This document shows, piece by piece, positions 5,275 to 59,846 of a stretch of DNA of 64,000 nt. The notes under the pieces were generated by a model. It was not told where the DNA came from. It saw only the letters and a program-made list of their open reading frames with translations, and made no database searches. Where the stretch lies: NCBI GenBank assembly GCA_038043245.1, contig JBBTCH010000003.1, positions 100,601 through 164,600 on the forward strand. Reading direction: 5' to 3'. Source of the DNA: Pseudomonadota bacterium (GTDB taxonomy: Bacteria > Pseudomonadota > Gammaproteobacteria > Nevskiales > Nevskiaceae). Every line of letters begins with the position of its first letter. Position 1 is the stretch's first letter. The position numbers were made by a program, and so were the translations under genes.

Positions 5275-5397
5275 CACCCGCTTACGACTGAAAACCGCTT
5301 TCAAATAGCATTTCGATGAACAAGGTGATACTAAAAATGTACCAATCTATTTTTGCTGCGAGGCTTGCGAGGCCCCAACAGGGCAGAAGCGGGTGGG
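5275..5397. repeat. MITE-like element, copy C (degenerate core)
   Basis: Left end CACCCGCTTA, core GGTGATACTAAAAATGTACCA, right end AGAAGCGGGTGGG. Collinear with the copies at 13098 and 30181. Confidence 0.6.
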
Positions 5398-10609: not shown

Positions 10610-12298
10610 ATGAGCACGTATCCGCCCCCCACTGAAGCCTTCGTCCGCGCGCGTGATTTCCTGTTTGCGCATCGCAGCGATTACGCCGCCGCCTATGCCG
10701 GTTTCGAGTGGCCGCGCCTTGCGCAATTCAACTGGGCGCTGGATGTCTTCGATATCGAGGCGCGCGGCAATGTGGCGCTCGCCCTGTGGGTGGTGAACGA
10801 GGATGGCAGCGAGTCGCGCATCACTTACGAGCAGATGCGACAGCGCTCCAATCAGGCCGCCAATTTTCTGCGCGGCTGCGGTGTTGCGCGCGGCGATGTG
10901 CTGCTGATCATGCTGCCCAATGTGCTGCCGCTGTGGGAGCTGATGCTGGGGGCGATCAAGATCGGTGCGGTGCTCAGCCCCGCAACCACGCTGCTCGCAG
11001 CGGCGGATTTGCAGGATCGCATCACGCGCGGCGACATGCGCCTGGTGATTGCCGATGTCGCCAGCACGGCGAAGTTTTCTGAAGTGTCCGGCAGCTACAG
11101 CCGCATCGTGGTCGGCGGCAGCGTCGCGGGCTGGCAGCGCTACGAACCCGCAGTGGCAACCGAGTTCGTGCCGCAGGGCGCAACCGAGGCCAGCGATCCG
11201 CTGCTGCTCTACTTCACCTCCGGCACCACGGCGAAGCCGAAGATGGTGCAGCACACCCAGCAGAGCTATCCGGTCGGGCATCTCTCCACGCTCTACTGGC
11301 TGGGCCTCAAGCCCGGCGATGTGCACCTCAACATCAGCTCGCCCGGCTGGGCCAAGCATGCCTGGAGCTGTTTCTTCGCGCCCTGGAATGCCGGGGCGAC
11401 GGTGTTCATCAACAACCAGCCGCGCTTTGATGCCCGGCAGACCCTCAGCACGCTGGTGCGCTGTGGCGTCACCAGCCTGTGCGCGCCGCCGACGGTGTGG
11501 CGCGCACTGATTCTCGAAGACCTTGCCAGCTACCCGGTGCGGCTGCGCGAGTTGATTGGCGCGGGCGAGCCCTTGAACCCGGAGGTGATCGAGCGCGTGC
11601 GCGCGGCCTGGGGCCTCACCATCCGCGACGGTTACGGCCAGACCGAAACCACCTGCATGATCGGCAACCCACCGGGCTGGCCGGTGCGCGAGGGTTCGAT
11701 GGGGGTGCCGATGCCGGGTTACCGCATGGCGCTGGTGGATGAGAACGATGTGGCGAGCAATGAAGGCGAGATCGCGGTCGCACTGCGGCCTGCACCGGCG
11801 GGTGTGATGGCGGGCTATCGCGGCCAGCCGGAGCGCAATGCGGCGCTGCTGGGGGGTGCGTACTTCCGCAGCGCCGATGTCGCCCGCCGCGATGCCGAGG
11901 GCTATTACTGGTATGTCGGCCGCAGCGACGATGTGTTCAAGTGCTCGGACTACCGCCTGAGTCCGTTTGAACTCGAAAGCGCGCTGCTGGAGCACGCTGC
12001 CGTCGCCGAGGCCGCCGTGGTGCCCAGCCCGGATGCGATCCGCCTCAATGTGCCGAAGGCGGTGGTGGTGTTGAAGCCCGGCATGGCTGCTGATGCGCAC
12101 ACCGCGAAAGCGCTGTTCGACTTCATCCGCACGAGACTTGCGCCCTACCAGCGCATCCGCCGCATTGAGTTCGCTGAGCTGCCCAAGACCGTCTCCGGCA
12201 AAATCCGCCGGGTCGAGCTACGCGCCACGGCCGTCGAGCGTCAGCAACAAGGCCTACGCGGCCCTGCCGAGTTCTGGGAAGAGGATTTTTCAGCATGA
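10610..12298 (+). CDS. AMP-dependent acyl-CoA synthetase (medium-chain-like)
   Basis: LYFTSGTTAKPKMV AMP-binding motif, GYGQTETT and SGKIRR at the C-terminus. Confidence 0.9.
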   Translation: MSTYPPPTEAFVRARDFLFAHRSDYAAAYAGFEWPRLAQFNWALDVFDIEARGNVALALWVVNEDGSESRITYEQMRQRSNQAANFLRGCGVARGDVLLIMLPNVLPLWELMLGAIKIGAVLSPATTLLAAADLQDRITRGDMRLVIADVASTAKFSEVSGSYSRIVVGGSVAGWQRYEPAVATEFVPQGATEASDPLLLYFTSGTTAKPKMVQHTQQSYPVGHLSTLYWLGLKPGDVHLNISSPGWAKHAWSCFFAPWNAGATVFINNQPRFDARQTLSTLVRCGVTSLCAPPTVWRALILEDLASYPVRLRELIGAGEPLNPEVIERVRAAWGLTIRDGYGQTETTCMIGNPPGWPVREGSMGVPMPGYRMALVDENDVASNEGEIAVALRPAPAGVMAGYRGQPERNAALLGGAYFRSADVARRDAEGYYWYVGRSDDVFKCSDYRLSPFELESALLEHAAVAEAAVVPSPDAIRLNVPKAVVVLKPGMAADAHTAKALFDFIRTRLAPYQRIRRIEFAELPKTVSGKIRRVELRATAVERQQQGLRGPAEFWEEDFSA

Positions 12299-13095
12299 GC
12301 AATGCACAGCTGCCCGTCAGCATCGAACGGCGCGAGCGCACCGCTATCGTCACGCTCAACCGCGGCGACGGACGCAACGCGCTCAATACCGAGGCGATGA
12401 CCCTGCTGCGTGATATCGCTCTGGAGCTGGCGCGCGATCCCGATCTCGGCGTGGTGATCGTGCGCGGCGAGGGGGCGTTTTCTGCGGGTGTGGATCTTTC
12501 CGAGTTGGCGCAAGGCAAACCCGGTGCCGGAAAGACGGTCGCCGAGCTGCGCGAACTGGTGAAGCTCGGCCCGGCGATGTGCAAGGCCTGGGAAGACATC
12601 GAAGCGTTCACCATTGCCGCCATCGAGGGTTACTGTGTCGGTGGCGCTGCCGCGCTCGCCGCCAGCGTGGATTACCGCGTGCTGGGCGAATCGGCATTCC
12701 TGCGCCTGCCGGAAGTGCCGCTGGGCATCAACATGAGCTGGCAGACGATTCCGCGGCTGGTCGCGCAGATCGGCCCCGCGCGCACCAAGCAGTACGTGAT
12801 TCTGGGCAAGCGCATCGCCGCAAAGCAGGCGCTGGATTGGGGCTTGTGCGAAGAAGTCACAACGGACGGCAAAACGCTCGAAGCCGCGCAGAAACTCGCC
12901 GCCGAAATTCTGGACCTGCCGCCACTGCCGGTGCGCATGACCAAGCAGACCGTGAATGCCGTCGCCAACGCATTGAGCACGCTGACCTCGCACATGGACC
13001 GCGATCAGTACCTGTTGACGACCCAGACTCAGGATTTCGCCGAGGCTGTCGCCGCCTGGCGTGACAAACGCAAGCCGAAATTCACCGGGAATTGA
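12295..13095 (+). CDS. Enoyl-CoA hydratase/isomerase (crotonase) family
   Basis: The ATGA overlap with the upstream stop suggests translational coupling. FSAGVDL and AAIEGYCVGGAAALA are crotonase motifs. Confidence 0.9.
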   Translation: MSNAQLPVSIERRERTAIVTLNRGDGRNALNTEAMTLLRDIALELARDPDLGVVIVRGEGAFSAGVDLSELAQGKPGAGKTVAELRELVKLGPAMCKAWEDIEAFTIAAIEGYCVGGAAALAASVDYRVLGESAFLRLPEVPLGINMSWQTIPRLVAQIGPARTKQYVILGKRIAAKQALDWGLCEEVTTDGKTLEAAQKLAAEILDLPPLPVRMTKQTVNAVANALSTLTSHMDRDQYLLTTQTQDFAEAVAAWRDKRKPKFTGN

Positions 13096-13097
13096 CC

Positions 13098-13219
13098 TAC
13101 CCGCTTGAGGCCATTTACAGGCTTCAGGGGCCGATTCCGAAAAACACGTGGTACTAAAAGTGTACCACCCGTTTTCTCGAACCGGTCTTGCAGGCTCTAA
13201 AAAGACCTCAAGCGGGTGG
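13098..13219. repeat. MITE-like element, copy A
   Basis: TACCCGCTTGAGG ... GTGGTACTAAAAGTGTACCAC (13148-13168) ... CCTCAAGCGGGTGG. The ends are terminal inverted repeats. Confidence 0.7.
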
Positions 13220-13284
13220 TGTTTTTAGGGGGCGTCTATCGCTCTACGGGAACCTTATCGGGTAGAATCGCGCTCCGAAAAAAC

Positions 13285-13361
13285 GCGCCCGTAGCTCAGT
13301 TGGATAGAGCACTTGGCTACGAACTAAGGGGTCGGAGGTTCGAATCCTTCCGGGCGCACCA
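13285..13361 (+). tRNA. tRNA-Arg: tRNA-Arg, anticodon ACG, CCA encoded
   Basis: Hand-folded cloverleaf. Acceptor GCGCCCG/CGGGCGC, D arm GCTC..GAGC, anticodon stem CTTGG/CTAAG with loop CTACGAA, T arm GGAGG-TTCGAAT-CCTTC. Confidence 0.95.
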
Positions 13362-13417
13362 GTTTTCGGACGAAAAAGAAACCCGCTCTTGGCGGGTTTT
13401 TTCGTTTGAGGACGCGC
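13341..13417 (+). repeat. Left copy of island-flanking direct repeat (tRNA 3' half plus terminator)
   Basis: Matches 24577-24657. The first 27 nt differ at one position. Confidence 0.8.
13379..13406. terminator. Rho-independent terminator after tRNA-Arg
   Basis: AAACCCGC-tcttg-GCGGGTTT followed by TTTCGTTT. Confidence 0.7.
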
Positions 13418-13678
13418 CCCGAGGTTCCCTCCGAGCGGCGGTAATACCACCCTGTCGAAGGTAGCGCGGCTCATCCATGAGCCGCAGCTTTCGGCCTCGC
13501 TACGCTCGCACTATCAGCATATCCATGTAGCTGATAGCCGAATCCTTCGGGGCCACATTTTTTAATGCACGGCAGGTCGTTTCCGTCCCGCCTCCCAACT
13601 GGTATAACAGCGCGCAAGAAGATGCGCCGGCATCCGACAAGGTTCAACTGCGACGACGTGCTGATTGGGGAGGAAAGG

Positions 13679-15049
13679 GTGGAAAAAATCACGCTGGATC
13701 AGCTGAAAGACCTCTATCCGCTTAACCAGCATCCAATACAGGTAGCGGAAGAACTGCTGCCGACGGTTCGAACCCGCTGGTATTCGAGCGGCCGTTCCCT
13801 GTTCAATGTCGGCGACAGTCCAGACGACTATTTTTACGTGCTCGAGGGTTCGGTCGTGCTGTCCGACCGCGACCAGCAGCGCGGTCAAACCGTCGGGCCG
13901 GTTTCGCAGGAAGAAGCGATTCCGATGCCGTACATGGTGCCCAGCGTTCATCTGGCATGGGCCGCCACTGACGCCAGAATTCTGCTGATCGATCGCAGGC
14001 AATTTCTGGATGTCATTCAGAAGGCCAAATCGCGCAGGCTCAGCGCGCTTGCCCAATCGTCCGCCGGCGGTTCCGCGGATCTATGGGCAGCCGACGCCGC
14101 CGTTTCCCATCCGGCCCCGGGAACCGTGCCTGCGCCGGCGATAAATCCAGGAGTTCGCGGGCCAGCCACGGCTCCCGCACCGATCTCCGAGGAATTCGAG
14201 AGAAATCTGGCGTTGGGCCGCGCGCAAATCCCTGAGCCGCCGCAAACGCCGATGCCGGCGCCCGATGAGCCCGAGCAGAAACCAGCGAGTGAGCCTCCGG
14301 CTGCGGATGCGCCGTTGCACAGCGAGCCCGGGACCGCCCACATGGAGCGCATCCTGCTGGTCGAGGATCACCCGACCGACGCCAAGATGGCGCAACTCAT
14401 GCTGAAAACACTGGGCTACGGTTCGGACTGGGTCAGCGGCGGCCCCCAGGCATTGAGCGCGATGGAGCGAAAGCGCTACCAGATTGTTCTTCTGGATGTG
14501 CAGCTGCCGGGGGTGGATGGGTTTGAAATCACGCGGTGTATCCGCGAACGCTGGCCCGGCGCCGCCGGGCCGCACATCATCGCGCTGACGGCGCGCAGCC
14601 TGAAGGGGGACCGCGAAGCCTGTCTTGCCGCCGGCATGGACGATTACATTCCCAAACCCATTTCCATTCACCTGCTGAGCGCAAAGCTCAATGACGAGAA
14701 CTGGGCGCTGGTGGATCCGAAGGTCATCGAGCATTTCGCCATGGCGGTCGGCAAGACCGGAGTGACCGCGCTGATCGACTCCTATCTGGACGCAATGCCC
14801 AGCATGATCGCGGACCTGCACAAGGCGGTGGCTGCAAATAATGCCAAAGACTTGCACCTTGCAGCGCATTCGCTGAAAGCGGCCGCGCAGGTTCTGGGCG
14901 TCCATCTCATCGCCGGTTACGCCGCGAAACTAGAAACCCTCGGCCGGTTCGCCAAGCTCGATGGCGCTCCGGCATTGCTCAGCCAGATCGACAGCGTGCG
15001 CCAGGAAACCGTGATCGAGCTGCAGAAGCTGCGCACGTTATATGGCTGA
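13679..15049 (+). CDS. cNMP-binding-like / receiver (REC) / Hpt fusion protein
   Basis: GGAGG lies 5 nt before the in-frame GTG at 13679; the ORF is open from 13565. GRSLFNVGDSPDDYFYVLEGSVVL is CAP-effector-like. REC: ILLVEDHPTD...LLDVQLPGVDG...YIPKP. Hpt: AAHSLKAAAQVLG. Confidence 0.75.
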   Translation: MEKITLDQLKDLYPLNQHPIQVAEELLPTVRTRWYSSGRSLFNVGDSPDDYFYVLEGSVVLSDRDQQRGQTVGPVSQEEAIPMPYMVPSVHLAWAATDARILLIDRRQFLDVIQKAKSRRLSALAQSSAGGSADLWAADAAVSHPAPGTVPAPAINPGVRGPATAPAPISEEFERNLALGRAQIPEPPQTPMPAPDEPEQKPASEPPAADAPLHSEPGTAHMERILLVEDHPTDAKMAQLMLKTLGYGSDWVSGGPQALSAMERKRYQIVLLDVQLPGVDGFEITRCIRERWPGAAGPHIIALTARSLKGDREACLAAGMDDYIPKPISIHLLSAKLNDENWALVDPKVIEHFAMAVGKTGVTALIDSYLDAMPSMIADLHKAVAANNAKDLHLAAHSLKAAAQVLGVHLIAGYAAKLETLGRFAKLDGAPALLSQIDSVRQETVIELQKLRTLYG

Positions 15050-15404
15050 ACCTGCCCGGGAGCTCGACCCTGACGCCCTGAAAAAACTGGCCGAGATCAT
15101 CGGCCACGACGGCGCCATCGAGATCGTTCAGACCTTCCGCGCTGATATCCAGAACCGGCTCACGGAGTTCAAGACCGGGTTACAGCAGGGTGACTTAAAA
15201 CTGGTTGAGCGCGCCGCGCACACGCTGAAGTCGGGGTCGGCCTACGTGGGAGGCCATTCATTTGCCGGCCTGTGCCAGACGCTGGAAACCGCAGCGAGCG
15301 AGAGCAGAACGGAAATTCTGCTCGAAAAGCAACATGAATTCGAACAGCGCCTGCTGCGCATCAGCGCGGAGCTTCTGGCGCTGGAGTCAGGCGCCAACAG
15401 TTGA
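15042..15404 (+). CDS. Stand-alone histidine phosphotransfer (Hpt) protein
   Basis: AAHTLKSGSAYVGG Hpt motif. Its start overlaps the upstream stop (ATGGCTGA). Confidence 0.75.
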   Translation: MAEPARELDPDALKKLAEIIGHDGAIEIVQTFRADIQNRLTEFKTGLQQGDLKLVERAAHTLKSGSAYVGGHSFAGLCQTLETAASESRTEILLEKQHEFEQRLLRISAELLALESGANS

Positions 15405-15456
15405 AGCGACGGCGGTGCCCGTACCCGCGGCCTCCGCTCGTAGAAATTCCCAAAAC

Positions 15457-15491
15457 CCCGACTTTCGTCGGGAACCCGACTTAGGTCGGGT
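15457..15491 (+). other. Two tandem near-identical hairpins between the Hpt gene and the pilin gene
   Basis: CCCGAC-tttc-GTCGGG (15457-15472) and ACCCGAC-ttag-GTCGGGT (15474-15491). Confidence 0.35.
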
Positions 15492-15597
15492 ATGAAATAT
15501 CTACACCCCTGCCTACAGTGCCGGCGCACTCAGGAGGGCTTGGTTGTTCGCCATCAACGCCTGGGCCCTTCACTCACATACATCAGGAGATGTACAC

Positions 15598-16080
15598 ATG
15601 AAAACAGCAATTCGTAGTTTTGCCGCCGTCGTTGTGGTCGCTGTGGCCTCTTCATCGGCGTTCGCTGCAAGCAGCACCCATGATCTGGCCGTGTCAGCCC
15701 AGATCAATGGCAATTGCAAATTCAACGGCGCCGGCCCGACCGCGCTGACCCTCGCCAACAGCGGCGCCCTGATTGATACGTCCCTGGCGACCGACGCCAC
15801 CGGCTCGGCCACCGTGCCGTTCCGTTGCACCAAGGGCACGACGTCAGCGATCTCGGCGGGCAATGGTCTGCACTTCGCCGGCGGCTCGCGCAATGTGGAT
15901 TCGGGCACGGAAACCATGGCGTACTCGCTGGCCCTGTCGGATGACGCGCAGGTCGGTACTGGCCACGGCGCCGGTCAGGATCTGACCCTGACGGTCGATG
16001 GCACGATCGCCTTCGCGAATCACCAGAACGCCAGCGCGGGCACCTACACGGACACCGTGGTTCTGACCATCACCCCGTAA
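15598..16080 (+). CDS. Spore-coat-U (SCPU) domain pilin, likely major subunit (CsuA/B-like)
   Basis: AGGAGA lies 7 nt upstream. Signal peptide ends ...SSSAFA. C-terminal AGTYTDTVVLTITP is typical of SCPU/Csu subunits. Confidence 0.85.
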   Translation: MKTAIRSFAAVVVVAVASSSAFAASSTHDLAVSAQINGNCKFNGAGPTALTLANSGALIDTSLATDATGSATVPFRCTKGTTSAISAGNGLHFAGGSRNVDSGTETMAYSLALSDDAQVGTGHGAGQDLTLTVDGTIAFANHQNASAGTYTDTVVLTITP

Positions 16081-16103
16081 TTTTTCTCCCTAGGCACAAG
16101 ACC

Positions 16104-16145
16104 AAGGCTGCGGCAGGATATCGCCGCAGCCTTTTCTTTTTCCGG
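16104..16145 (+). terminator. Rho-independent terminator/attenuator after the major pilin gene
   Basis: AAGGCTGCGGC-aggatatc-GCCGCAGCCTT followed by TTCTTTTTCC. Confidence 0.6.
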
Positions 16146-16198
16146 GGCTGTGCTGGCGATCTTCCTTCGCCAGACCCGGAAAGGCCGAAGGTGTTTTC

Positions 16199-16687
16199 AT
16201 GAATCTACGTCAACGCACCGTGTTTGCCGTGCTGGCCTTCGGGCTGACGGCAATGGCGTGCCCGGCCCGGGCCGCTGGTTCGCACACGCTGTCGGTCGGC
16301 GCCACGATCCTGTCCAAGAATCAATGCAAGTTCACCAATGGCGGACCGACTGCGCTTGCGTTCGGCGCGATTGACCCTTCATCGCCTGCGGACAGCACCG
16401 CGACGGCCACCACCACCTTCAAGTGCACCGGCTCGAGTCCGATGGCGACCTATCAGATCACCTCGGACGACGGCCTGTACGAAACCAGCACGAGTGCGCC
16501 GCGGATGCGCCATGGCACCAACCTGGCCGAATTCCTGCCGTACTCAATCAACCTGCCGCAGTCCGCGACGGTCCCCAAAAACGTGACCCAGACCCTGACG
16601 GTCAACGGCACCATCCTCGCTGCGCAGTTTCAGAATGCGCTGGCCGGTGCCTATAGCGACACGGTGGTTCTCACGATTTCGCCGTGA
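16199..16687 (+). CDS. SCPU-domain pilin subunit (CsuA-like)
   Basis: Signal peptide and C-terminal AGAYSDTVVLTISP. Confidence 0.85.
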   Translation: MNLRQRTVFAVLAFGLTAMACPARAAGSHTLSVGATILSKNQCKFTNGGPTALAFGAIDPSSPADSTATATTTFKCTGSSPMATYQITSDDGLYETSTSAPRMRHGTNLAEFLPYSINLPQSATVPKNVTQTLTVNGTILAAQFQNALAGAYSDTVVLTISP

Positions 16688-16716
16688 TGTGTCGTCACCG
16701 CCTGCCCTGCTAGGCT

Positions 16717-17469
16717 ATGCACATGCTGAAAATCCGTGGAATTTTCTGGCCAGTGGCGCTGGGGATGGCGGTTTTTATTTCAACAGCCGCCCAGGCCAGC
16801 GGCTTTGGTGTTGCGCCGATCCGCCTGGATTTCGACCGCACCTCGAAGACCGGGCTCATCGAGGTCAGCAATGACGATACGCGGCCACTGTCTTTCCAGA
16901 TGAAGTTGTTCGCCTGGAGCCAGGATGCCGAGGGCAAGGATCAGTATCAGCCCAGCAATGACCTGATTTTCTTTCCGCAGATCATGTCCCTGAAACCCAA
17001 GGAAAAGCGGCCCATCCGGGTCGGCACCAAGGGTCCGCCGGCGGCGTCTGAGCGCGCCTACCGCCTGTTCATCGAGGAACTTCCCGATCCTGCCGAGACA
17101 GCTGCGGCGAAAGCGCCGCAGATTGCGGTCCGGATACGGTTCGGTGTGCCGCTGTTCGTGGCCCCGGCCCAGCCGCAAATCGCCGGTGTGATTGAAGATG
17201 CGAAGTTGGCCAAGGGAGAAATTCAACTGCGGGTGAGAAACACCGGCAACCGTAATTTCCAGTTTGAAACCGTCGCGGCCCGCGCCGGCACAACCTCTAT
17301 AGGCGAGACGCGAGGGTGGTATCTGTTTCCCGGCATCGCACGCGCCTACAGCATCAAAGTGGATTCGGAAGCCTGCGCCAAGGCAAAAACACTGGAAGTC
17401 CATTTAAGCGCGGACGGCCTGGAACTCAAACACGAGCTGGAAGCCACTCCCACGCTCTGCCGTCCCTGA
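16717..17469 (+). CDS. Periplasmic pilus chaperone (PapD/CsuC-like)
   Basis: GFGVAPIRLDFDRTSKTGLIEVSNDDTRPLSFQMKLFAW is a typical chaperone N-domain. Confidence 0.85.
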   Translation: MHMLKIRGIFWPVALGMAVFISTAAQASGFGVAPIRLDFDRTSKTGLIEVSNDDTRPLSFQMKLFAWSQDAEGKDQYQPSNDLIFFPQIMSLKPKEKRPIRVGTKGPPAASERAYRLFIEELPDPAETAAAKAPQIAVRIRFGVPLFVAPAQPQIAGVIEDAKLAKGEIQLRVRNTGNRNFQFETVAARAGTTSIGETRGWYLFPGIARAYSIKVDSEACAKAKTLEVHLSADGLELKHELEATPTLCRP

Positions 17470-17512
17470 CGGCTGGCGCTACACGCCAGCTGGATTTTCC
17501 GGAGTCTGTCGG

Positions 17513-19906
17513 GTGAAGCGGTTTTTTCTGCTATGCGTTGTCGCTGCCCTGATATTCCGGTCACTGGATGCGTCCGCACAACCAACCGGTGCCGCCGTCC
17601 GCCCCGTACGTCAAGCCGCCAGCCCGCTGCAGGCCCTGGTCGCCGCCATCACGGTCAACAGCGAACCCAAGGGGGAAGGAATTCTCTACCTCGAAGGTCA
17701 GGATGATTTTTTAATCAAACTCTCCGAGCTCGAAGCGCTGGCCAAGGTTCCAGCGACCATCGAGGCGGTGGAGATCGAAGGCGAGCACTACATTGCATTG
17801 AAGCGCCTTCCCGGCGCAGAAATCGTGTTCGATGAGAAAACCCTGACACTGGCTATCGTCCTGCCGCCCGAGGCGTTCGAAAACCGGGTTTACAGTCTCG
17901 CCACCAGCCGCGCCTCCGCAGAGCCGCTGCCGGATCAATTCAGTGCCCTGCTCAATTACCGGATGAGCCATACCGGCGACGACCAGGGGTCTGCGGGCAA
18001 CTGGGTTCTGGGCGCCGAGGAGGGTTTACACCTGGGAAACTGGTTGTTCGCCAACCAGAACCAGTTTTTGTATGACGCCCGGCGCTTCCAGTCCCTGCGC
18101 TACGGCACGCAGCTGATTCGCGACTATCGCGAACACATGCAACGCCTGACCCTGGGTGATGCGTTTACCGCGCCCAGAGAACTCGGCGCTTCGGTGCCGG
18201 TTGCCGGCGTGAGCTTCTCCAAGGCCTACCAGTTATCGCCGTATTTCGTGCGGGTGCCCTCGGTCAATTTCGCCGGCACCACGTCTCTGCCGTCCGAAGT
18301 GGATTTTTATGTGGGCGATACCCGCGTCCTGCGCCAGCAGGTCTCGCCGGGGCCGTTTGAAATTGCCGACTTCAACTATTACGGAGGCCAGCGCGATGTC
18401 CGCGTTGTGCTTCGCGACAACCTGGGACGCGAGCAGACCATTGCCTACCCGTTTTATTTCACGGATCAGGGATTGGCGCGGGGTCTGCACGATTACAGCT
18501 ACCAGATCGGCGTCCTGCGCAGGGATTTTGGGCTTGAGACCAGCCGCTATGGCTCCCCCGCATTTTCGACATTTCATGCCTACGGCTTTACCGATTCGAT
18601 CACGCTGGGATTTCGCACCGAAGGGACTGCGGACTACGGCAACCTCGGCCTCAATGCCGTTTTGCGCAGCGATTATCTCGGCGTGTTGTCCTTGAATGGT
18701 GCCAGCAGCCTCGACGGCGGCGGACGCCGCGGAGCTGCTTATGCTGCGGCCTACAGCTTCCAGTCGGGCGGGTTTTCCGGCGTACTGGCGGGGCGCCGGT
18801 TCAGCGACGCTTACACCGCGCTTACTGCCGGCGTGCCGGTATTGCCGCCGAAACGGGAGCTCAACGGATCATTGGGATACTCGATTGCCGGACTGGGCTC
18901 CCTGAACATCGGCTACAGCCGCCGCGACTCCTATATCAACGCCGGTTCCAGTCAGGCAAGTCTGGGTTATTCACGCAGCTTTCTGCGCAAGCTCAATGTG
19001 TTCGCGACCTATCGCCATCGCATCGGTCAGAGCGCTGGAGATGAGGTGTTCATCGGCCTGCAGTACCAGCCCGGCGCGAACCACACGGTGGGCGCCTCGG
19101 TACAAGCCAATGATGCCGGCAGGCAGCACGGGCAGATCCAGGTCGCCAATGCGCTGCCGCAAGGCCAAGGCTACGGCTACCGGCTTGGCCTTGAGCGCGA
19201 GAACGACCCGGTCGGTGCAGCCACGTTTGTCTCTCCGGAATTGCAACTCAATACTCGTTACGCCGCCCTATCCGGAATCGCCCGCTCACAATTCGGATCG
19301 GCGGCGTCCGCTACGACTTATTCCGTTGCGATGGCCGGGAGTCTCGCGACGGTGGGCGGCCATGTCGGCTTCAATCGACCCATCAGCGACAGTTTTGGCG
19401 TCGCCGAGATCACGCCGCCGCTAGCCGATGTCCGCGTCTATCAAAACAGCCAGGAAGTCGGTCGTACTGACAGTAATGGCCAATTGTTTTTGCCCGAGAT
19501 CATCTCGTTCATCGACAACCACATTTCGATCAATGACAAGGATATTCCGATCGAATACGGCATGGACCGCACGTCTCGCCTGTTTTCTGCTTCATTCCGC
19601 AGCGGATCAGTGCTCAAATTTTTGGTACGGCGCACGCAAAGCTTCGCCGGATCGCTGAAATACAGCATGGCGGGCACCCCGTTACCGCTGGAGTATCATT
19701 CGGTGCTGTTGACCGTGGGCGCGGACAAAATAGACTTTCTTACGGGCGGTAACGGTGACTTCTACCTTGAGAACATTCCCGCAGGCACTCATCAGGCATT
19801 GGTGCGGATCGGCGCTGTCGAATGCACGTTCACCGTGGTCCTGCCGGAAAGTCCGGAGATATTCATCGCGCTCGGCGAGGTCATGACCTGCGATGTCGCG
19901 CCTTAA
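17513..19906 (+). CDS. Outer-membrane pilus usher (CsuD-like)
   Basis: 797 aa, GTG start, signal peptide, located between the chaperone and the tip-subunit gene. The length and position fit an usher. Confidence 0.85.
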   Translation: MKRFFLLCVVAALIFRSLDASAQPTGAAVRPVRQAASPLQALVAAITVNSEPKGEGILYLEGQDDFLIKLSELEALAKVPATIEAVEIEGEHYIALKRLPGAEIVFDEKTLTLAIVLPPEAFENRVYSLATSRASAEPLPDQFSALLNYRMSHTGDDQGSAGNWVLGAEEGLHLGNWLFANQNQFLYDARRFQSLRYGTQLIRDYREHMQRLTLGDAFTAPRELGASVPVAGVSFSKAYQLSPYFVRVPSVNFAGTTSLPSEVDFYVGDTRVLRQQVSPGPFEIADFNYYGGQRDVRVVLRDNLGREQTIAYPFYFTDQGLARGLHDYSYQIGVLRRDFGLETSRYGSPAFSTFHAYGFTDSITLGFRTEGTADYGNLGLNAVLRSDYLGVLSLNGASSLDGGGRRGAAYAAAYSFQSGGFSGVLAGRRFSDAYTALTAGVPVLPPKRELNGSLGYSIAGLGSLNIGYSRRDSYINAGSSQASLGYSRSFLRKLNVFATYRHRIGQSAGDEVFIGLQYQPGANHTVGASVQANDAGRQHGQIQVANALPQGQGYGYRLGLERENDPVGAATFVSPELQLNTRYAALSGIARSQFGSAASATTYSVAMAGSLATVGGHVGFNRPISDSFGVAEITPPLADVRVYQNSQEVGRTDSNGQLFLPEIISFIDNHISINDKDIPIEYGMDRTSRLFSASFRSGSVLKFLVRRTQSFAGSLKYSMAGTPLPLEYHSVLLTVGADKIDFLTGGNGDFYLENIPAGTHQALVRIGAVECTFTVVLPESPEIFIALGEVMTCDVAP

Positions 19907-20381
19907 ATATTTTTTAGGGGGAGTGCTCCTGTGCTTTGCAGGCAGCAGCTACGGGCAGAGCCCCCACACCACGTGCAGCGCCAGCAATGCCAGCCTCAGT
20001 CTGGGTCAGTACCCCAGCTACAGCGCAACGCCGGTGGACTCCAGCGGAGTTTTTACCGTGACCTGCACGCGCACCGGCGGCCCGCCGGATACCGACATCA
20101 CCGTCGGACTCGGTCCCAGCGCAAATTCCGGCAGCATCCCGAATCGGCAGCTGCGGTCCGCGAGTGGAGCCGATGTCTTGAACTACAACCTTTACGCCGA
20201 TGCCTCAAGACTGCGGGTCTGGGGGGATACCGAAGGGGTGAACACGGTGACCGAGACCATCCGGCTTGCGAACAAAACCAGCGGCAGTCTGAACTTCAAT
20301 ATCTACGCGAGGATCGACGCGCTGCAGGACGTGCGCGCGGGGCTGTATTCCGACTCGATCGTGGTCACGGTGAGTTTTTAG
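19893..20381 (+). CDS. SCPU-domain subunit, probable tip/adhesin (CsuE-like position)
   Basis: Overlaps the usher stop. C-terminal AGLYSDSIVVTVSF. Confidence 0.8.
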   Translation: MSRLKYFLGGVLLCFAGSSYGQSPHTTCSASNASLSLGQYPSYSATPVDSSGVFTVTCTRTGGPPDTDITVGLGPSANSGSIPNRQLRSASGADVLNYNLYADASRLRVWGDTEGVNTVTETIRLANKTSGSLNFNIYARIDALQDVRAGLYSDSIVVTVSF

Positions 20382-20393
20382 CGGGACACTCGC

Positions 20394-21089
20394 TCAGAAC
20401 GAAGAAATTGTGGACACCTGCATCATGCGCTGAGCCGCGATGGCGGCTTCGGTTCGTCTGCGTAGACCCAACTGGCGCAGGATCAGGGTGACGTGCCATT
20501 TCACGGTGGCTTCCGCCATGTTCAGCTCGCTCGCGATCTGCTTGTTCAGACGACCCTCGGCTACCAGCATCAGCACGCGGAACTGCATGGGCGTCAACTC
20601 GGGAATGCGCGAGGCCGGGTCGTGGCGTGTGTCGTCTTTCGTGGCCATGCGCACCGCGGGTGGAACCCAGGTTTCTCCGTTTAAAACCAGACGCAGCACG
20701 TCGGCCAACTCGACAATCGGCAGGGATTTCGGCACATAGGCGCGGGCGCCCAGCTCAAGGGCGCGACGCATCACATCCGCCTCTTCATGGCCTGAGACCA
20801 CCACCACGGGCAACCGCGGATGTTCGGTCCGCAGATAGTTCAGACAGGAGAATCCGTCGGCGCCAGGCATGTCCAGATCGAGCAACACAAAATCCGTTGC
20901 AGACCGATTTTCAAAATGTCGTTTGAGTGACTCGAAAGAATCGGCTTCCGCAGTGCGTGAGATGCCCAGCGAGCGCGTCAGCAGCAAACGCATCGCGTCC
21001 CGGAACATCGGGTGATCGTCCGCGATCAATACCTGTCGCGGAACAGGGCGCACAGCTTTTGCAGCTTTGTTTTTTAATGGTTTGGACAT
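20394..21089 (-). CDS. NarL/FixJ-family response regulator (REC plus LuxR HTH)
   Basis: VLIADDHPMFRD...LLDLDMPGADG; HTH LTPMQFRVLMLVAEGRLNKQIASELNMAEATVKWHV. Confidence 0.9.
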   Translation of the reverse strand: MSKPLKNKAAKAVRPVPRQVLIADDHPMFRDAMRLLLTRSLGISRTAEADSFESLKRHFENRSATDFVLLDLDMPGADGFSCLNYLRTEHPRLPVVVVSGHEEADVMRRALELGARAYVPKSLPIVELADVLRLVLNGETWVPPAVRMATKDDTRHDPASRIPELTPMQFRVLMLVAEGRLNKQIASELNMAEATVKWHVTLILRQLGLRRRTEAAIAAQRMMQVSTISSF

Positions 21090-21177
21090 GCAGGATGACG
21101 ACCACTCCCTGCCACAACATTAACACCCGTAAGGCTTGACCGCATCGGTATCGTGCCTCGCGACTTCCGAAACCCCG

Positions 21178-24100
21178 CTACTGCGCTCCGGGCCTTTGCA
21201 CACAGCGTTTCAGCGCAGCCACCAGGGCTTCTGCGGTCACCGGCTTGACCACGTAGTCCTGCATGCCGGCGCGCTCGCCTTCGTGACGGTCTTCAGCCAT
21301 GGCATTGGCGGTCATGCCGACGATGCGCGGGCGCCGGTCGGGCGGGAAGCGCTTGCACAGCGTTCGCGTCGCTTCCAGGCCATCCATCACCGGCATCTGC
21401 ACATCCATGAAGACCACGTCATAGGCCAGGCGCTCGACCGCGGCCACCGCCTCCTGACCATTGGCGACGAAATCGGGCTTGTAGCCCATGCGGTTGAACA
21501 GCAGCTGCGCCACCTTCTGGTTCACCGTGTTGTCTTCGGCGATCAGGATGCGCAGCGGATGTTCCTGCCCGAGATTCTTCGGCAGTTCGAAGCGGGTATT
21601 TTCGTTGTCCATTTTGGTTCTCGGCATTTTCTTGAGTACTTCCTGCGTGACCTCGAGCAGGCGCGAGGGCTTGATCGGCTTGAGCATCGCGGCGGTGATG
21701 ACGCCGGGCTTCTCGCCTTTGACGAGGGCAGAACTCAGCATGACGATCGGCAGTTCCGCTTCCGGCCGCAACTTGCGCAGCTTGCGCGCCAGCTCAAGGC
21801 CGTCCATGCCCGGCATGTGGAAGTCCAGCAGCGCAATGTCGTAGGGGTCGCCCCGTTCTATCCACTGCAGGGCTTCGCTGGCGCTGTCGGTGGCCTGCGG
21901 CTCCATGCCCCAGGCGCGGCTGTAGTGCAGCAGGACGCGACGGTTGATCTCGATGTCGTCCACGATCAGCACCCGCCGTCCGCGCAGGCCAGGAATCTCC
22001 GCCTGCGGCGTGATGCGTTTGTCGAGCGGTGCCGCTGAAACACGGACGGTGAAACTGAAGACCGAACCCTGTCCGGGCTGGCTTTCGACCCGGATCGTCC
22101 CGCCCATCAGCTCGACCAGACGTTTGCTGATCGACAATCCCAGGCCGGTGCCGCCGTAGGTGCGCGTGGTGGAGCTGTCTACCTGGGAGAAGGGCTTGAA
22201 CAGCTTGGCTTGTTGTTCCGGATTCATGCCGATGCCACTATCCTTCACTGCGAATTCGATCTCGTAGGCTTCGTCCAGCTTGCGCGCCGAAACCTCGACC
22301 GACACCTGGCCTTGGGCGGGCGTGAACTTGACTGCGTTGGACAGCAGGTTCAACAGCACCTGGCGCAGGCGACTGACGTCGCCGCGGACGCCTTCCGGAA
22401 CTTCGGGTTGAGTGAGGTAGCCGACTTCCACGTTCTTCTGGGCTGCCGCCGCAGAGATGAGATCCAGCGTGGTTTCAATGCACTCGCGCAAGGCAAAAGA
22501 CTCGGATTCAAGCTCGACCTTGCCGGCCTCGATTTTGGAGTAATCGAGGATGTCGTTGATGATCGTCAACAGATGCTCGCCGCTGTTGCGGATGATCTCG
22601 GTCCATTCCCGCTGCTCGGGCGTCTGCCTGGAATCCATCAGGATGCTGGTCATGCCGATGACGGCGTTCATCGGCGTGCGGATTTCGTGGCTCATGTTGG
22701 CCAGGAACGCGGTCTTGGCTTCGGCGGCGGCATGCGACGCGGTCTGGGCGGATTTCATGTCCTCGATATCGGTGGACGTACCGAACCACTTGACCACATT
22801 GCCCTGCTCGTCCTTGAGTGGCAGCGCGCGCGCCAGATGCCAGCGGTAGATGCCATCGTGCCGCCGCAACCGGTACTTCGCCTCCAGCGGAGTGCCCGCT
22901 TCCAGGGACTCGCGCCAGGCGGCTCGCGTTGCCTCAAGATCATCACGATGAAGCCCTTTCTCCCACCCAGTCCTTATGACGGTTTCAAGCGTAGCCCCGA
23001 AGTAATTGGTGAGCGCCGAATTGGCGAAGTTCAGGGTGCCATCGGGCTGCGCCGTCCATACATGCTCGGGGATGGCTTCGCTCAGGAACCGGTAGTGGGC
23101 CTCGCTTTCGCGCTGCGCCTGCTCGGCCTTGATGCGCTGCGTGATGTCAGCCGCCACGCCGCCGATGAATAATCGTTTTTGGGCATCAACGAAGCGGAAC
23201 CGGGTCAAATACCAGTAATGATCGACCCCTTGGGCGTCCGCCGCCGACCCCTCCGATTCGCTGGACTGCCCTGTCCTCAGTACCGGCAGTTCCTTGTCCC
23301 TGCAGAGCTGGGCAAAGTCCTTGGGGAACAGGTCGAAATCGGTCTTGCCCTTCCAGCGGTCGTCGTAAATCCCGAGGAATTTGCGGTATGCGGCGCTGAC
23401 AAAAAGATATCGTCCGTCTTCATCCTTCATCCAGCTCAGCGAGGGGTTATTGTCCAGAAACATCTGGAATCGACCTTCGCTTTCACGCAGTTCGCGCTCC
23501 AGGCGTCTTTGTTCCGTGACATCCAGGCCGATGCCGGCCACGAATTTTCTGCCGTCACTGCCGGGCAGGGAGAATTTTTGAATCCACCAGTCTGCGACCT
23601 TGCCATCGCGGTCCCGGGTGTTGCACTCAAATTGGACCGGCGAATCGGAATCCAATGCGCGACGGTCAGTTTCGCTGAAAAGTCGTGCTTCATCCGCCGA
23701 GAAGAATGAAGTGTCGTCGCGCCCGGACCAGTCGTCCTCTTTCGCGCCGAATCGCTTTTTATGGGCCTTGTTCCGGGTGACATAGCGACCGTCATCGGTT
23801 TTGATCCAGGCGATCGCCGGCGTGTATTCCAGAAACGACTTGAATCGGTCTTCGGCCTCCTGCACCGCTTTCTGAGCGTGCCGAAGCCGGGTGAAATCCC
23901 ACCAGGACGAGCGCGACAGGATTTCCTGGTTGTACGCGCCCAGGACCGCGATTACGCCAAAGAAAATAAGCAGGTAGGCCTGCAGCAAGGGCACATTTCC
24001 GTTGCCCGGATACAGAAACTCCAGGGCGATGGCGGCCGCTGTGAAGGCAACGGAGGTCGGAGCGATCCTGGCCCAGCTGAAGCCGCCAAAGAACGTGATG

Positions 24101-24469
24101 GCGATCAGCGTGACGCCAAACATGCCCGCGGGATAGCGCATTTCCCCTTCGAGGGAAAAATACCGGAAAACGAGGATCACGGACAGCAGAATGACCACGG
24201 CCGCGCTTTGAACGCCCTGCGCCCAGACCCGGGGTGTTCGAAAAAAGCTGACGGCCGCGGCAGCGAGACAGATCGGCATCACCAGAGCCAGTTCGAGGAT
24301 CACCAGTAATTGCGCCATGGCCGGCGAAGGCAGAAACAGATAGTCCTGATACAGCGGCGCCAGCCCGAATCCCAGGGCGAACGCTACAAATAATCCTGTT
24401 CTCGCCGCTCTCAAGCTTCGCCGCAGATATTCGCGGAACGCGATTTCCAGGTCGGGCGGGAAACGCATG
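21178..24469 (-). CDS. Hybrid sensor histidine kinase: multi-TM N-terminus, 3 PAS, HisKA/HATPase, two REC domains
   Basis: [19 protein letters not shown]-box, [10 protein letters not shown], and two receivers ([11 protein letters not shown] and [11 protein letters not shown]). ATG at 24469; the ORF-track start at 24501 is a TTG. Confidence 0.85.
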
Positions 24470-24506
24470 TCACGCACTTCTCTGCTCAATTTGCGATGCA
24501 ATTTGT

Positions 24507-24517
24507 GGGGGGGGGGG
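24507..24517. repeat. G11 (C11 on the kinase strand) homopolymer tract
   Basis: Counted directly: atttgtGGGGGGGGGGGtat. It lies 38-48 nt upstream of the kinase ATG at 24469. Confidence 0.9.
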
Positions 24518-24576
24518 TATTCACTTTGTCTTGCTGTCTATAGGAGGGCTTGTCTCAAGAGTCAGACACTATCGCG

Positions 24577-24657
24577 CGAATCCTTCCGGGCGCGCCAGTT
24601 TTCAGCGAAAAAAGAAACCCGCTTCTGGCGGGTTTCTTTTTCGTTTGAGGGCGCGTT
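24577..24657 (+). repeat. Right copy of island-flanking direct repeat (orphan tRNA-Arg 3' half plus terminator)
   Basis: cgaatccttccgggcgcGccagttttc... aligns with 13341-13417. By hand alignment there are 8 mismatches and one 3-nt indel over ~77 nt. Confidence 0.8.
24613..24645. terminator. Bidirectional rho-independent terminator (serves csrA on the minus strand)
   Basis: GAAACCCGC-ttctg-GCGGGTTTC with T-runs on both strands. Confidence 0.7.
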
Positions 24658-24659
24658 CG

Positions 24660-24845
24660 CTATTCGGGTTTTTTCGCGGCTTCGTCAGCCTGAATGCGCC
24701 CCGCGACTTCTTCGCGGTGCACGGCGACATCCTTGGGCGCCTTGATGCCGATGCGCACCTGGTTGCCTTTGAGGCCGAGGACGGAGACGACGATCTGATC
24801 GCCGATGACGATGGTTTCGCCGACGCGGCGGGTGAGTATCAGCAC
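24660..24845 (-). CDS. csrA: Carbon storage regulator CsrA/RsmA
   Basis: (M)[45 protein letters not shown], with a GTG start. Confidence 0.95.
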
Positions 24846-24915
24846 GGTCCTGCTCCCTCGCTGCCCGCTCCGTCCGTGGATGCGTATAGCCGCAGCGTTT
24901 AGTTATGCGGCTAGC

Positions 24916-26145
24916 TTAACCCGGCGCCTGTTCCAGACCAAAGGCCTTGTGCAGGGTGCGCACCGCCAGTTCCAGATACTTGTCCTGCACCGCGACCGAG
25001 ATCTTGATCTCGGAGGTCGAGATCATCTGGATGTTGATGCCTTCGGCGGCCAGCGCCTTGAACATCTTGGCGGCGATGCCGGCGTGCGAGCGCATGCCGA
25101 CGCCGACCAGCGAGACCTTGACGATGTCGGTGGAGGTGCGCACGCCCTTGGCGCCGAGTTCTTTCGCCACGCGCTTGACCACTTCGGCGGTTTTCTCGAT
25201 GTCGTTGCGGTGCACGGTGAAGGTGAAGTCGGTGCTGCCGTCGGCGCCGACGTTCTGCACGATCATGTCCACTTCGATGTTGGCCTCGCCCACGGGCCCG
25301 AGGATCGCGGCGGCGATGCCGGGACGGTCGGGCACGCCGTTCATGGTGATCTGCGCCTCGTCGCGGTTGAAGGCGATACCGGAAATCAGCGGGTCTTCCA
25401 TCTTTGAGTCCTCATCTTCAAGCGTGATCAGCGTGCCGGGGCCTTCGACGAAAGTCGAAAGCACGCGCAGCGGAACCTTGTATTTGCCGGCGAATTCCAC
25501 CGCGCGGATTTGCAGCACTTTCGAGCCGAGGCTCGCCATCTCGAGCATTTCTTCGAACGTGATGCGGTCCAGCCGGCGCGCTTTCGGCTCGACGCGTGGA
25601 TCGGTGGTGTAGACGCCGTCCACATCGGTATAGATCTGGCATTCGTCGGCCTTGAGCGCGGCGGCCAGCGCCACGCCCGTGGTATCCGAGCCACCGCGGC
25701 CGAGCGTGGCGGTGCTGCCATCCGGCGCGATGCCCTGGAATCCGGCGACCACCGGCACGATGCCGGCATCGCAGTCGGCACGCAGGCGCTCGGCGTCGAT
25801 CGCCTGGATGCGCGCCTTGGTGTAGGCCTCGTCGGTGCGGATGGCGACCTGCGGGCCGGTATACGAGCGCGCCGGCACGCCGGCTTTTTCCAGCGCCAGC
25901 GCCAACAGGCCGATGGTGACTTGTTCGCCGGTCGAGGCGATCTGGTCCATCTCACGACCCGAACCGCGCGGATTGATCGACTTGGCGAGCTTCAAAAGTC
26001 GATCGGTTTCGCCGGACATCGCGGACACGACGACGACAACCTGATGGCCTTTCGCACGCGTTGCCGCAATCTTGCTGGCGACATGCTCGATGCGCTCGAC
26101 CGAGCCCATCGAGGTGCCGCCATATTTCTGGACTATGAGAGACAT
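24916..26145 (-). CDS. lysC: Aspartate kinase
   Basis: MSLIVQKYGGTSMGSVERI..., C-terminal ACT domains, 409 aa. Confidence 0.95.
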   Translation of the reverse strand: MSLIVQKYGGTSMGSVERIEHVASKIAATRAKGHQVVVVVSAMSGETDRLLKLAKSINPRGSGREMDQIASTGEQVTIGLLALALEKAGVPARSYTGPQVAIRTDEAYTKARIQAIDAERLRADCDAGIVPVVAGFQGIAPDGSTATLGRGGSDTTGVALAAALKADECQIYTDVDGVYTTDPRVEPKARRLDRITFEEMLEMASLGSKVLQIRAVEFAGKYKVPLRVLSTFVEGPGTLITLEDEDSKMEDPLISGIAFNRDEAQITMNGVPDRPGIAAAILGPVGEANIEVDMIVQNVGADGSTDFTFTVHRNDIEKTAEVVKRVAKELGAKGVRTSTDIVKVSLVGVGMRSHAGIAAKMFKALAAEGINIQMISTSEIKISVAVQDKYLELAVRTLHKAFGLEQAPG

Positions 26146-26157
26146 GCGTTTAATTGT

Positions 26158-26239
26158 GTCATTCCGAGCATCGCGAGGAATCTGATCAGATCCTTCCCCC
26201 TCAAGGGGGGACTGAACAGAGTCGTTCGCTCAGGATGAC
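26158..26239. repeat. REP/MITE-like palindromic element (GTCATTCCGAGC family)
   Basis: GTCATTCCGAGC...GCTCAGGATGAC inverted termini. Shares GTCATTyCGAGC..GCGAGrAATCTGATCAGAT with the element at 47293. Confidence 0.6.
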
Positions 26240-26242
26240 AGC

Positions 26243-29200: not shown

Positions 29201-29281
29201 GAGCGAAGACGAGGGCACCACGGTGTGGCCCTTGCTCCTGAAAAACTCCAGGAATTTCGCTCGCAGCTCATTCGTATTCAT
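26243..29281 (-). CDS. alaS: Alanine--tRNA ligase carrying two in-frame insertions (1012 aa)
   Basis: [19 protein letters not shown]..., [31 protein letters not shown] and a C-Ala domain. About 135 aa longer than the ~875-aa bacterial norm (from memory). Confidence 0.95.
27326..27424. repeat. Triple-hairpin palindromic element inside the alaS coding sequence
   Basis: CCCTCTCCCCC-tt-GGGGGAGAGGG (27328-27351). GGGGTGAGGGG...CCCCTCACCC (27354-27392). CCCTCTCCCCG-tgaaa-CGGGGAGAGGG (27396-27422). Confidence 0.8.
27797..28135 (-). other. AT-rich in-frame insertion (~112 codons) within alaS
   Basis: Hand count gives 128 G+C in the 300 nt 27841-28140 (~43%), against the GC-rich remainder of the gene. 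The reading frame is uninterrupted. Confidence 0.8.
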
Positions 29282-30180: not shown

Positions 30181-30300
30181 CACCCGCTTATGGGCATTTC
30201 ATGCCGTTTTCGGGCTCGCGATGAAAAACAGTGGTACTAAAAGTGTACCACCTGTTTTCTTGCAATCCCTGTTTCGGGCTTGAAAATGCCTCAAGCGGGT
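30181..30300. repeat. MITE-like element, copy B
   Basis: CACCCGCTTATGG ... GTGGTACTAAAAGTGTACCAC (30231-30251) ... CCTCAAGCGGGT. Confidence 0.7.
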
Positions 30301-47284: not shown

Positions 47285-47292
47285 GCGGATGT

Positions 47293-47355
47293 GTCATTTC
47301 GAGCGCAGCGAGAAATCTGATCAGATTCCTCGTCGAATACGCTCCTCGGAATGAC
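47293..47355. repeat. REP/MITE-like palindromic element (GTCATTCCGAGC family)
   Basis: GTCATTTCGAGCGCAGCGAGAAATCTGATCAGAT...CTCGGAATGAC with inverted termini. Confidence 0.6.
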
Positions 47356-57172: not shown

Positions 57173-57617
57173 CCGCCTAAAGGCGGGTTACTTCTTTGGC
57201 GCAAAGAAGTAACCAAGAAACATTCGCTCCGCTGCGCCGACAGATTCCTTGAGCTTCTGGCTCGTTCGGGGTACCGCGCGAACGCGGCGTCCATGCCGCG
57301 CCGCGCTCGGCGAACTTCCTGTTCGCCGCTCTCCTCACTCACAGCGAAGCTCAAGGCGGCGCAAAGTCGCTGGAACATCAACAGCGGTGGCTTTGCGGAG
57401 TCTTTTGACTTTCGCGCCGTTTGCGCCACCAGAGCACTGGAGCAAAAGCACGTGAGGCCGAACAGGACGTTCGGCCTAGCGCCAGCACTACAAGGACGTC
57501 GTGTTGGCGCGTTAGTGTTTTTGCGAAGCGCGCAAGGAATCTTTCGGCGCATCCGGCGCAAGAGCGGTTTTGGTGACTTTTGCCGCGATTGGCAAAAGTT
57601 ACCCGCGCTTTAGCGCG
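57173..57617. repeat. ~440-nt highly structured non-coding element with inverted termini
   Basis: The left end GCGGGTTACTTCTTTGG pairs with the reverse complement of the right end (GCGGGTAACTTTTGCC). Internal hairpins include 57187-57213, GGCCGAAC-aggac-GTTCGGCC, and the interval 57574-57603 (strict 9-bp palindrome 57576-57599). Confidence 0.5.
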
Positions 57618-59775: not shown

Positions 59776-59846
59776 GGCATGCTTTTCGCTGATTCTAACC
59801 GCCACGTCCACGGGCATAATGAAGCCCGACAGGGACGGGGGAAGCG

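Follow-up and report, generated by a model that had tools for sequence, protein, structure and literature searches.

A probable integrase-less genomic island carrying a Csu-type pilus operon at the tRNA-Arg(ACG) gene of a Nevskia-related gammaproteobacterium

We analysed a 64 kb stretch of DNA (the window: positions 100,601 to 164,600 of contig JBBTCH010000003.1, GenBank assembly GCA_038043245.1) from an uncultured Nevskia-related gammaproteobacterium, in which an 11.2 kb segment (approximately 13405-24576) lies between a tRNA-Arg(ACG) gene and csrA. This segment is probably a genomic island whose point of entry was the 3' part of the tRNA gene, most likely by way of a tyrosine integrase. It is bounded by a direct repeat that begins in the T-loop, carries a pilus operon together with signalling genes, lacks recombinase genes, differs in composition from the rest of the window and is absent from the corresponding site of a related species. 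We classify it as a decayed, integrase-less tRNA-gene island resembling a cis-mobilizable element (CIME), a well-known kind of element that here carries a known kind of pilus operon.

A repeat-bounded segment at tRNA-Arg(ACG)

ARAGORN and Rfam both identified an intact tRNA-Arg(ACG) (13285-13361, + strand; RF00005, 67.6 bits) as the sole tRNA gene of the window; the Rfam search of the window returned nothing else, its sub-threshold matches being terminator look-alikes. The last 21 nucleotides (nt) of the gene (CGAATCCTTCCGGGCGCACCA) and the terminator behind them form one arm of a direct repeat. The left copy, on the attL side (13341-13417, + strand), comprises this T-loop-to-CCA segment and 56 nt with a bidirectional terminator hairpin (13376-13402). 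The right copy, on the attR side (24577-24657, + strand), consists of a displaced tRNA-Arg 3' fragment, again running from the T-loop to CCA, followed by a bidirectional terminator with a perfect 14-bp stem (24609-24641) that serves csrA. A repeat finder aligned 62 nt of the two copies at 87% identity without gaps and detected no other such repeat pair in the window. Gapped alignment gave 8 mismatches and one 3-nt indel (TTC) over approximately 77-81 nt, with a single difference in the initial 27 nt, where the discriminator base is A in the left copy and G in the right. The displaced tRNA fragment itself (24577-24597) agrees with the tRNA-Arg 3' end at 20/21 nt. Similarity begins at C56 of the T-loop, with none upstream of it, and includes a 17-nt perfect core, the overall identity of the repeats being only 87%. 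Both copies preserve the G+C core of the terminator stem (CCCGC/GCGGG). Two of the substitutions are in the loop, and the right copy owes its perfect 14-bp palindrome to the TTC insertion. The right copy stops 2 nt short of the csrA stop codon. An earlier note on this DNA, made from the sequence alone, had described a directly repeated tRNA 3' end plus terminator with these same mismatch and indel counts over about 77 nt, one difference in the first 27, loop substitutions with intact stems and a right copy abutting csrA; all of this was confirmed.

The genes flanking the segment encode an S9-like hydrolase, an acyl-CoA ligase and an enoyl-CoA hydratase (ECH, 12295-13095) on the left; on the right, csrA (24660-24845, - strand; Pfam PF02599, E = 1e-24) is the first host gene and precedes lysC, alaS, prmA, accC, accB and aroQ. 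Searching with ECH homologues led to a related species (locus L089, GCA_964539245.1; ECH 83% and lysC 97% identical at the amino acid level, DNA about 82-89%) in which the order is S9-like, ECH, tRNA-Arg(ACG) (+), terminator, csrA (-), lysC, alaS. In BLASTN comparisons, window 12367-13404 aligned to L089 3657-4708 and window 24577-26145 to L089 4645-6219. Both repeats of the window thus fall on one copy in L089 (4645-4708), and window 13405-24576 is without counterpart. This arrangement is the empty site that the earlier note had predicted, with the crotonase gene followed by tRNA-Arg and csrA converging on one bidirectional terminator.

A third species at a similar distance (L117 and L088, both from sample ERZ25039476; csrA 90%, ECH 88%) has csrA, tRNA-Arg and thyA in the same orientation and ECH at another locus, near tRNA-Ser(GCT) (L117 10001-10470; also L088). 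No island was found beside csrA or ECH in these contigs. In the genus-level group formed by the window species and its relatives, a rearrangement breakpoint lies just downstream of csrA. In a scan anchored on lysC with one genome per species, the best relatives were Nevskia metagenome-assembled genomes (MAGs) at about 82%, all of which keep the order alaS, lysC, csrA, tRNA-Ser, tRNA-Arg; these Nevskia loci were rejected as an empty site because they are too distant, and serve as background. None of 80 more distant lysC loci contained island genes. In most gammaproteobacteria, including Nevskia, csrA, tRNA-Ser(GCT) and tRNA-Arg(ACG) stand in this order and share one orientation; the convergent tRNA-Arg/csrA arrangement of the window is a derived state. 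A collection of 5.8 billion proteins contained no usher more than 55% identical to that of the island besides the organism's own copies. The same collection includes the ECH and CsrA proteins of the relatives, which therefore appear to be without the island altogether. Searches of the Joint Genome Institute (JGI) metagenomes returned 0 matches both for the exact pattern of an intact tRNA joined to the csrA end and for a looser pattern of the tRNA 3' end plus terminator; the lineage is not in that collection.

Pfam scans of the island genes detected no integrase, excisionase, transposase or relaxase domain, and a 73-aa open reading frame (ORF) at the left end of the island had no Pfam match. 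None of these four functions was found among approximately 45 ORFs scanned across the 64 kb window either, which encode ordinary housekeeping genes, and the claim of the earlier note that they are missing was upheld. The non-coding gaps between the repeats reach at most 261 nt (at the left end), too little to accommodate an integrase gene or a substantial piece of one. With no recombination or transfer genes, the island therefore cannot move by itself.

Composition was compared against the 64 kb window only, and the effect is small. The GC content of the island is 60.6%, that of the left flank 65-67% and that of the right flank 58-65%. The G+C content at third codon positions (GC3) of the nine island genes ranges from 0.69 to 0.79 (pooled 0.738), against a pooled value of 0.793 for the 34 other genes (Mann-Whitney p = 0.0015), and among 53 sliding frames of 11.2 kb the tetranucleotide distance to the rest of the window is maximal for the frame starting at 13001. 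The segment had been described as visibly less GC-rich; the GC3 and tetranucleotide shifts are detectable, but the contrast in raw GC is modest and the description was overstated. Such a shift fits DNA that was acquired long ago, that has partly ameliorated or that came from a compositionally similar donor.

A pilus operon and its signalling genes

Nine genes occupy the interval between the repeats. On the + strand, the first encodes a 456-aa phosphorelay protein with a cyclic nucleotide monophosphate (cNMP)-binding domain, a REC domain and an Hpt domain (13679-15049; PF00027, PF00072 and PF01627), called as a gene in the same-organism contig L085 and lying in an ORF open from 13565; the second encodes a stand-alone Hpt phosphotransfer protein of 120 aa (15042-15404; PF01627, E = 8.6e-14). 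They are followed, on the same strand, by a CsuA/B-like SCPU-domain pilin (15598-16080; PF05229), a terminator-like hairpin found by a terminator scan (16104-16133), a second SCPU-domain pilin (16199-16687; PF05229), a CsuC-like periplasmic chaperone of the PapD type (16717-17469; PF00345), a CsuD-like outer-membrane usher (17513-19906; PF00577) and a third SCPU-domain subunit (19893-20381; PF05229, E = 5.6e-29). On the - strand lie a response regulator with REC and LuxR/GerE-type domains (20394-21089; PF00072 and PF00196; 204 aa from the probable start at 21008) and a hybrid histidine kinase in which Pfam detects three PAS domains, HisKA, HATPase and two REC domains (21178-24501; probable ATG start at 24468; called as a gene in the same-organism contig L001). 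The top NCBIfam match of the response regulator, ErdR, scored under its cut-off, as did all other NCBIfam matches of island proteins (NarL and others).

The three PF05229 domains, PF00345 and PF00577 stand in one cluster and all score above their gathering thresholds. By domain content, the cargo is an archaic (Csu/CupE-type) chaperone-usher pilus operon with three SCPU subunits, a chaperone and an usher. This class includes Csu of Acinetobacter baumannii and CupE of Pseudomonas aeruginosa (PMC4654587, PMC6003481, PMC10104325), and the PprAB two-component system activates CupE (PMC3510237). Similarly to Csu and CupE, one operon of the island encodes SCPU subunits together with a PapD-like chaperone and an usher, and the island's sensor kinase and response regulator could act in a PprAB-like manner, a likeness that holds at the domain level. 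Unlike those systems, the operon has five pilus genes only, and the nearest usher to that of the island is 55% identical. CsuE is a larger, two-domain tip adhesin; the last subunit of the island operon is, in contrast, a single SCPU domain of 162 aa, and no two-domain tip adhesin of the CsuE type is present. The signalling part also differs from PprAB, being a four-protein hybrid-kinase/Hpt relay that includes the cNMP-binding REC-Hpt protein.

From their adjacency to the pilus operon, and by analogy with PprAB and CupE, the four phosphorelay genes around it probably control pilus expression, and the cNMP-binding REC-Hpt protein is probably a second input to this control. The nearest ushers elsewhere (46-55% identity) belong to five-gene Csu cassettes at unrelated loci; the loci examined had no signalling genes, tRNA-Arg or integrase, and none was identified as a donor or sister island. 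The earlier note had treated the segment as one functional cargo: its gene content is as stated and was verified with Pfam, but the functional unity is an inference from adjacency, and the nearest Csu-type clusters are without linked signalling genes. Paralogy between the island kinase and a resident hybrid kinase (57610-59817) was also considered; the two are 35% identical, which is uninformative, and short DNA matches of 81% reported by the repeat finder correspond to conserved kinase motifs.

A homopolymer of 11 G residues, read from the sequence, lies upstream of the kinase gene (24507-24517), 6-39 nt from its candidate starts, and has the same length in the L001 assembly. It is a possible candidate for a slipped-strand phase-variation switch acting on pilus regulation.

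Origin of the island

Tyrosine integrases that target tRNA genes use the T-loop and the anticodon loop as two symmetric crossover sublocations (bioRxiv 10.1101/2020.11.02.365908; PMC1762012; PMC4383910). The identity block typically extends from the crossover loop to the CCA end (bioRxiv 10.1101/2020.11.02.365908; PMC1762012), and a regenerated tRNA gene and a displaced fragment delimit the resulting islands (PMC4383910). We propose that the present island would have arisen by site-specific recombination of this kind, with a crossover in or beside the T-loop. The incoming DNA would have brought a replacement T-loop-to-CCA segment and a terminator, keeping the tRNA intact, and the original 3' fragment would have been displaced 11.2 kb rightward with the terminator that it shared with csrA. 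The spare terminator makes functional sense, because the tRNA and csrA would each retain one after the insertion. The integration module may have been lost afterwards; alternatively, an integrase supplied in trans may have carried out the insertion. Excision of the island would at most be possible through an integrase that is encoded elsewhere, as with CIMEs.

The resemblance to the tRNA-gene islands of Islander (PMC4383910) is close: the tRNA gene would have been split and then restored by the island, an intact gene and a displaced 3' fragment mark its ends, the boundary lies in the T-loop, the site is uninterrupted in a relative and the composition is slightly atypical. The differences are that the tyrosine integrase gene, the feature on which Islander is anchored, is absent, all nine ORFs being otherwise assigned, and that the repeat is imperfect (87%) and reaches 56 nt past the tRNA through the terminator. 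CIMEs, described mostly in Firmicutes (PMC6323972, PMC5704250), likewise lack integration and conjugation genes; the repeats of the window, as putative attL and attR, keep a 17-nt perfect core and are only 87% identical overall. In contrast, no cognate integrative and conjugative element (ICE) or integrative and mobilizable element is known for the island, and we do not claim an ICE origin. An identity block running from the T-loop to the CCA end is shared with the T-loop attB systems of mycobacteriophage Ms6 at tRNA-Ala (PMC1762012) and of the group I.a integrases of Klebsiella islands (bioRxiv 10.1101/2020.11.02.365908), unlike which the island does not encode its recombinase locally.

Integrase-less islets bounded by 3' repeats were also found at other tRNA-Arg(ACG) loci, where the repeats start from the anticodon loop. 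They carry HigB/HigA (L056 11469-12681, 1.2 kb), a Gp49-like protein with a helix-turn-helix protein (L020 7659-8961, 1.2 kb) and a LexA/S24-like protein with DUF3892 (L064 12447-14864, 2.4 kb). In L056 the repeat runs imperfectly through the terminator, so that carrying a spare terminator with a spare tRNA end is not unusual. These loci mark the csrA-linked tRNA-Arg as an insertion hotspot that recurs in distant proteobacteria. A scan of viral contigs for the 21-mer returned mostly phage tRNA arrays, together with seven partial tRNA-Arg fragments of anticodon-loop and T-loop types.

Several observations weigh against this account of the island. Neither an integrase nor a remnant is present and the gaps are too small to hide one, so that the integration module would have needed clean removal. 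No other genome was found to carry the whole island, which leaves any mobility hypothetical. The lone clean empty site is a MAG contig with 10 consecutive N between terminator and csrA; an insertion hidden in this run is unlikely, because the spacing from the terminator to the stop codon equals that of the window within 1 nt. The single copy in L089 shares 90.9% identity with the left copy and 84.1% with the right one (the two window copies agree at 87.0%), whereas a simple T-loop crossover predicts that the right copy should be nearer, unless it drifted faster. The difference of 13% between the repeats is about equal to the between-species divergence of this segment. As for the cargo, gene adjacency is the sole connection between the phosphorelay and the pilus. 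Naming the host-derived repeat copy from the comparison with L089 was attempted and set aside: the left copy is slightly favoured, and the counts are too small to place the crossover. For comparison, neutral intergenic DNA is about 73% identical between the window species and L089. The three att sequences are about equally diverged (84-91%), and accordingly either the insertion dates from about the time of the species split or attP was already unlike attB. By these identities, the insertion is not recent.

The divergence of the repeats could also mean that the duplication predates the species split, in which case the segment would be ancestral and L089 would have lost it, by recombination between the repeats of about 80 nt or by integrase excision, the empty site being a deletion scar. 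Exactly one copy, the state of L089, is what recombination between direct repeats would leave behind, and the window copies differ from each other (87% identity) as much as either differs from the L089 site (84-91%). The segment would remain a repeat-bounded island and only the direction of the event would change. We consider such a loss unlikely. Both L089 and L117/L088 are without the island, which requires at least two losses, so that one gain is more parsimonious; in addition, no close usher homologue exists elsewhere, and the GC3 and tetranucleotide shifts lie precisely over the island.

A second alternative is raised by the left end of the island. There, a non-coding module absent from the empty site (13418-13538) holds two palindromes, GCGGCTCATCCATGAGCCGC (13466-13485) and another at 13511-13537, both of which are perfect, as had been stated. 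Immediately beyond it, an echo of the T-loop-to-CCA segment (13539-13565, + strand) appears to be a third, decayed copy. It matches the 15-mer CGAATCCTTCCGGGC at 14/15 positions (1 mismatch), and with two gaps the similarity reaches approximately 13565. Matches to this 15-mer with at most 2 mismatches are expected 0.30 times per whole window, and no shuffle gave 3. The echo starts 198 nt after the first T-loop copy, and the intervening 121 nt are absent from L089.

Similar layouts were found at other loci. In a Nevskia genome (L002, 9166-9481), a 120-nt direct repeat with 196-nt spacing stands behind the csrA-linked tRNA-Arg. Its copies are 98% identical, begin at the same T-loop position as the window repeat and cover the terminator. 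Between the L002 repeats lies the palindrome GTCAGCCCCATCCATGGGGCTGAC, which has the same CATCCATG centre as GCGGCTCATCCATGAGCCGC of the window, with arms that are different but complementary; its distance from the upstream tRNA-Arg is equivalent as well. Such CATCCATG-centred palindromes occur, within the 1.75 Mb of fetched DNA, only in the window, in L002 and at one unrelated site. L060 (8559-8933) contains at least 3 tandem 142-nt units of the same design, which in all three places (window 13341-13565, L002, L060) joins a T-loop-to-CCA segment to a terminator and a short palindromic spacer. The earlier note had left open whether the echo is an att relic or a chance match. A relic is the more likely of the two, chance being disfavoured by the expectation of 0.30 and by the L002 layout; the echo is most likely the trace of a real recombination history, as either a second tiny att-bounded module or the remnant of a tandem tRNA-Arg.

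If the latter, the repeats could be paralogues instead of duplicated attachment sites. They would descend from an ancestral array of tandem tRNA-Arg units, each made up of tRNA, terminator and spacer and recurring about every 196-198 nt, and the cargo would have entered the T-loop of the second copy; the echo would then be the decayed second copy and the right repeat its displaced 3' end. The 198-nt offset of the echo, the L002 repeat with its 196-nt spacing, common T-loop start and matching CATCCATG palindrome, and the tandem units of L060 agree with such an array. Beside csrA, tRNA-Arg(ACG) genes commonly stand in tandem, with periods of 100-260 nt, and an array would account for the similarity running through the terminator. 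We nevertheless give this origin little credence. The 121-nt spacer does not significantly resemble the 55 nt at the 5' end of the tRNA, and neither do those of L002 and L060 (p = 0.16-0.83 against shuffles), and the spacer between left repeat and echo was accordingly rejected as a pseudo-tRNA, its alignment to the 5' part of the tRNA being no better than those of shuffles. Furthermore, L089 and L117 each have a single tRNA-Arg unit, and a T-loop-specific break at the right repeat would still be required.

Lastly, a chimeric join at the repeated tRNA end during assembly or binning is highly improbable, even though the source is a MAG and the same-organism Logan contig L085 (position 1 = window 13332) breaks exactly 30 nt before the tRNA 3' end, because the repeats share no 31-mer and could not be collapsed or mis-joined, and because two other assemblies of the same organism, which are not independent evidence, reproduce the island at 100% identity: L001 spans 14660-26417 with the right junction to csrA, lysC and alaS, and L085 spans 13332-22155 with the left junction from within the tRNA. 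If Logan was assembled with k = 31, the 30-nt break equals k-1 and would imply that the tRNA end is repeated in the read set, with at least one further continuation after an identical tRNA-Arg 3' end, for example in a second gene copy, a different organism or a variant site.

The small modules also suggest a more speculative idea, which we consider improbable. In this group of gammaproteobacteria, the T-loop of tRNA-Arg(ACG) could be a shared docking site at which a recombinase encoded elsewhere stacks integrase-less cassettes, namely the pilus island and modules of 140-200 nt, with the CATCCATG palindrome binding the recombinase or an accessory protein. If so, the tiny modules would be minimal 'attP-only' elements.

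Other repeats and wider meaning

Other insertions and repeats were noted in the window. Alanyl-tRNA synthetase (alaS, 26243-29281, - strand) is 1012 aa long owing to two in-frame insertions (27782-28151 and 27320-27434) that are absent in L002-L004, L089 and L117; the first, of approximately 115-123 aa, has no Pfam match, and the second, of approximately 38 aa, is a translated palindromic element of the GGGGAGAGGG/CCCTCTCCCC type, similar to repetitive extragenic palindromes. A repeated, terminator-like hairpin with a 14-bp stem (AAAACACGTGGTAC TAAAAGT GTACCACCCGTTTT) follows ECH (13141-13177) and accC (30224-30260), with a weaker copy at 5318-5354; it also occurs in L089 (4438-4477), L092, L094 and L088 and is conserved, unlike the surrounding intergenic DNA. 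Finally, a 42-nt dispersed repeat, TGTGTCATTCCGAGCATCGCGAGGAATCTGATCAGATCCTTC, is present in two intergenic regions (26155-26196 and 47290-47331; copies 83% identical) and is probably another small repeat family.

The island itself opens no new mechanistic question, and the only part with wider potential is the recurrence of tiny T-loop-bounded modules at tRNA-Arg(ACG). The island is a clean example of an element that detection anchored on integrases would miss, since junctions, empty site and compositional signal remain without a recombinase. It illustrates how an adhesion/biofilm organelle, together with a sensory relay, can join the chromosome of one lineage at a tRNA hotspot, and it predicts a lineage-specific surface-attachment trait in this uncultured Nevskia-related gammaproteobacterium.

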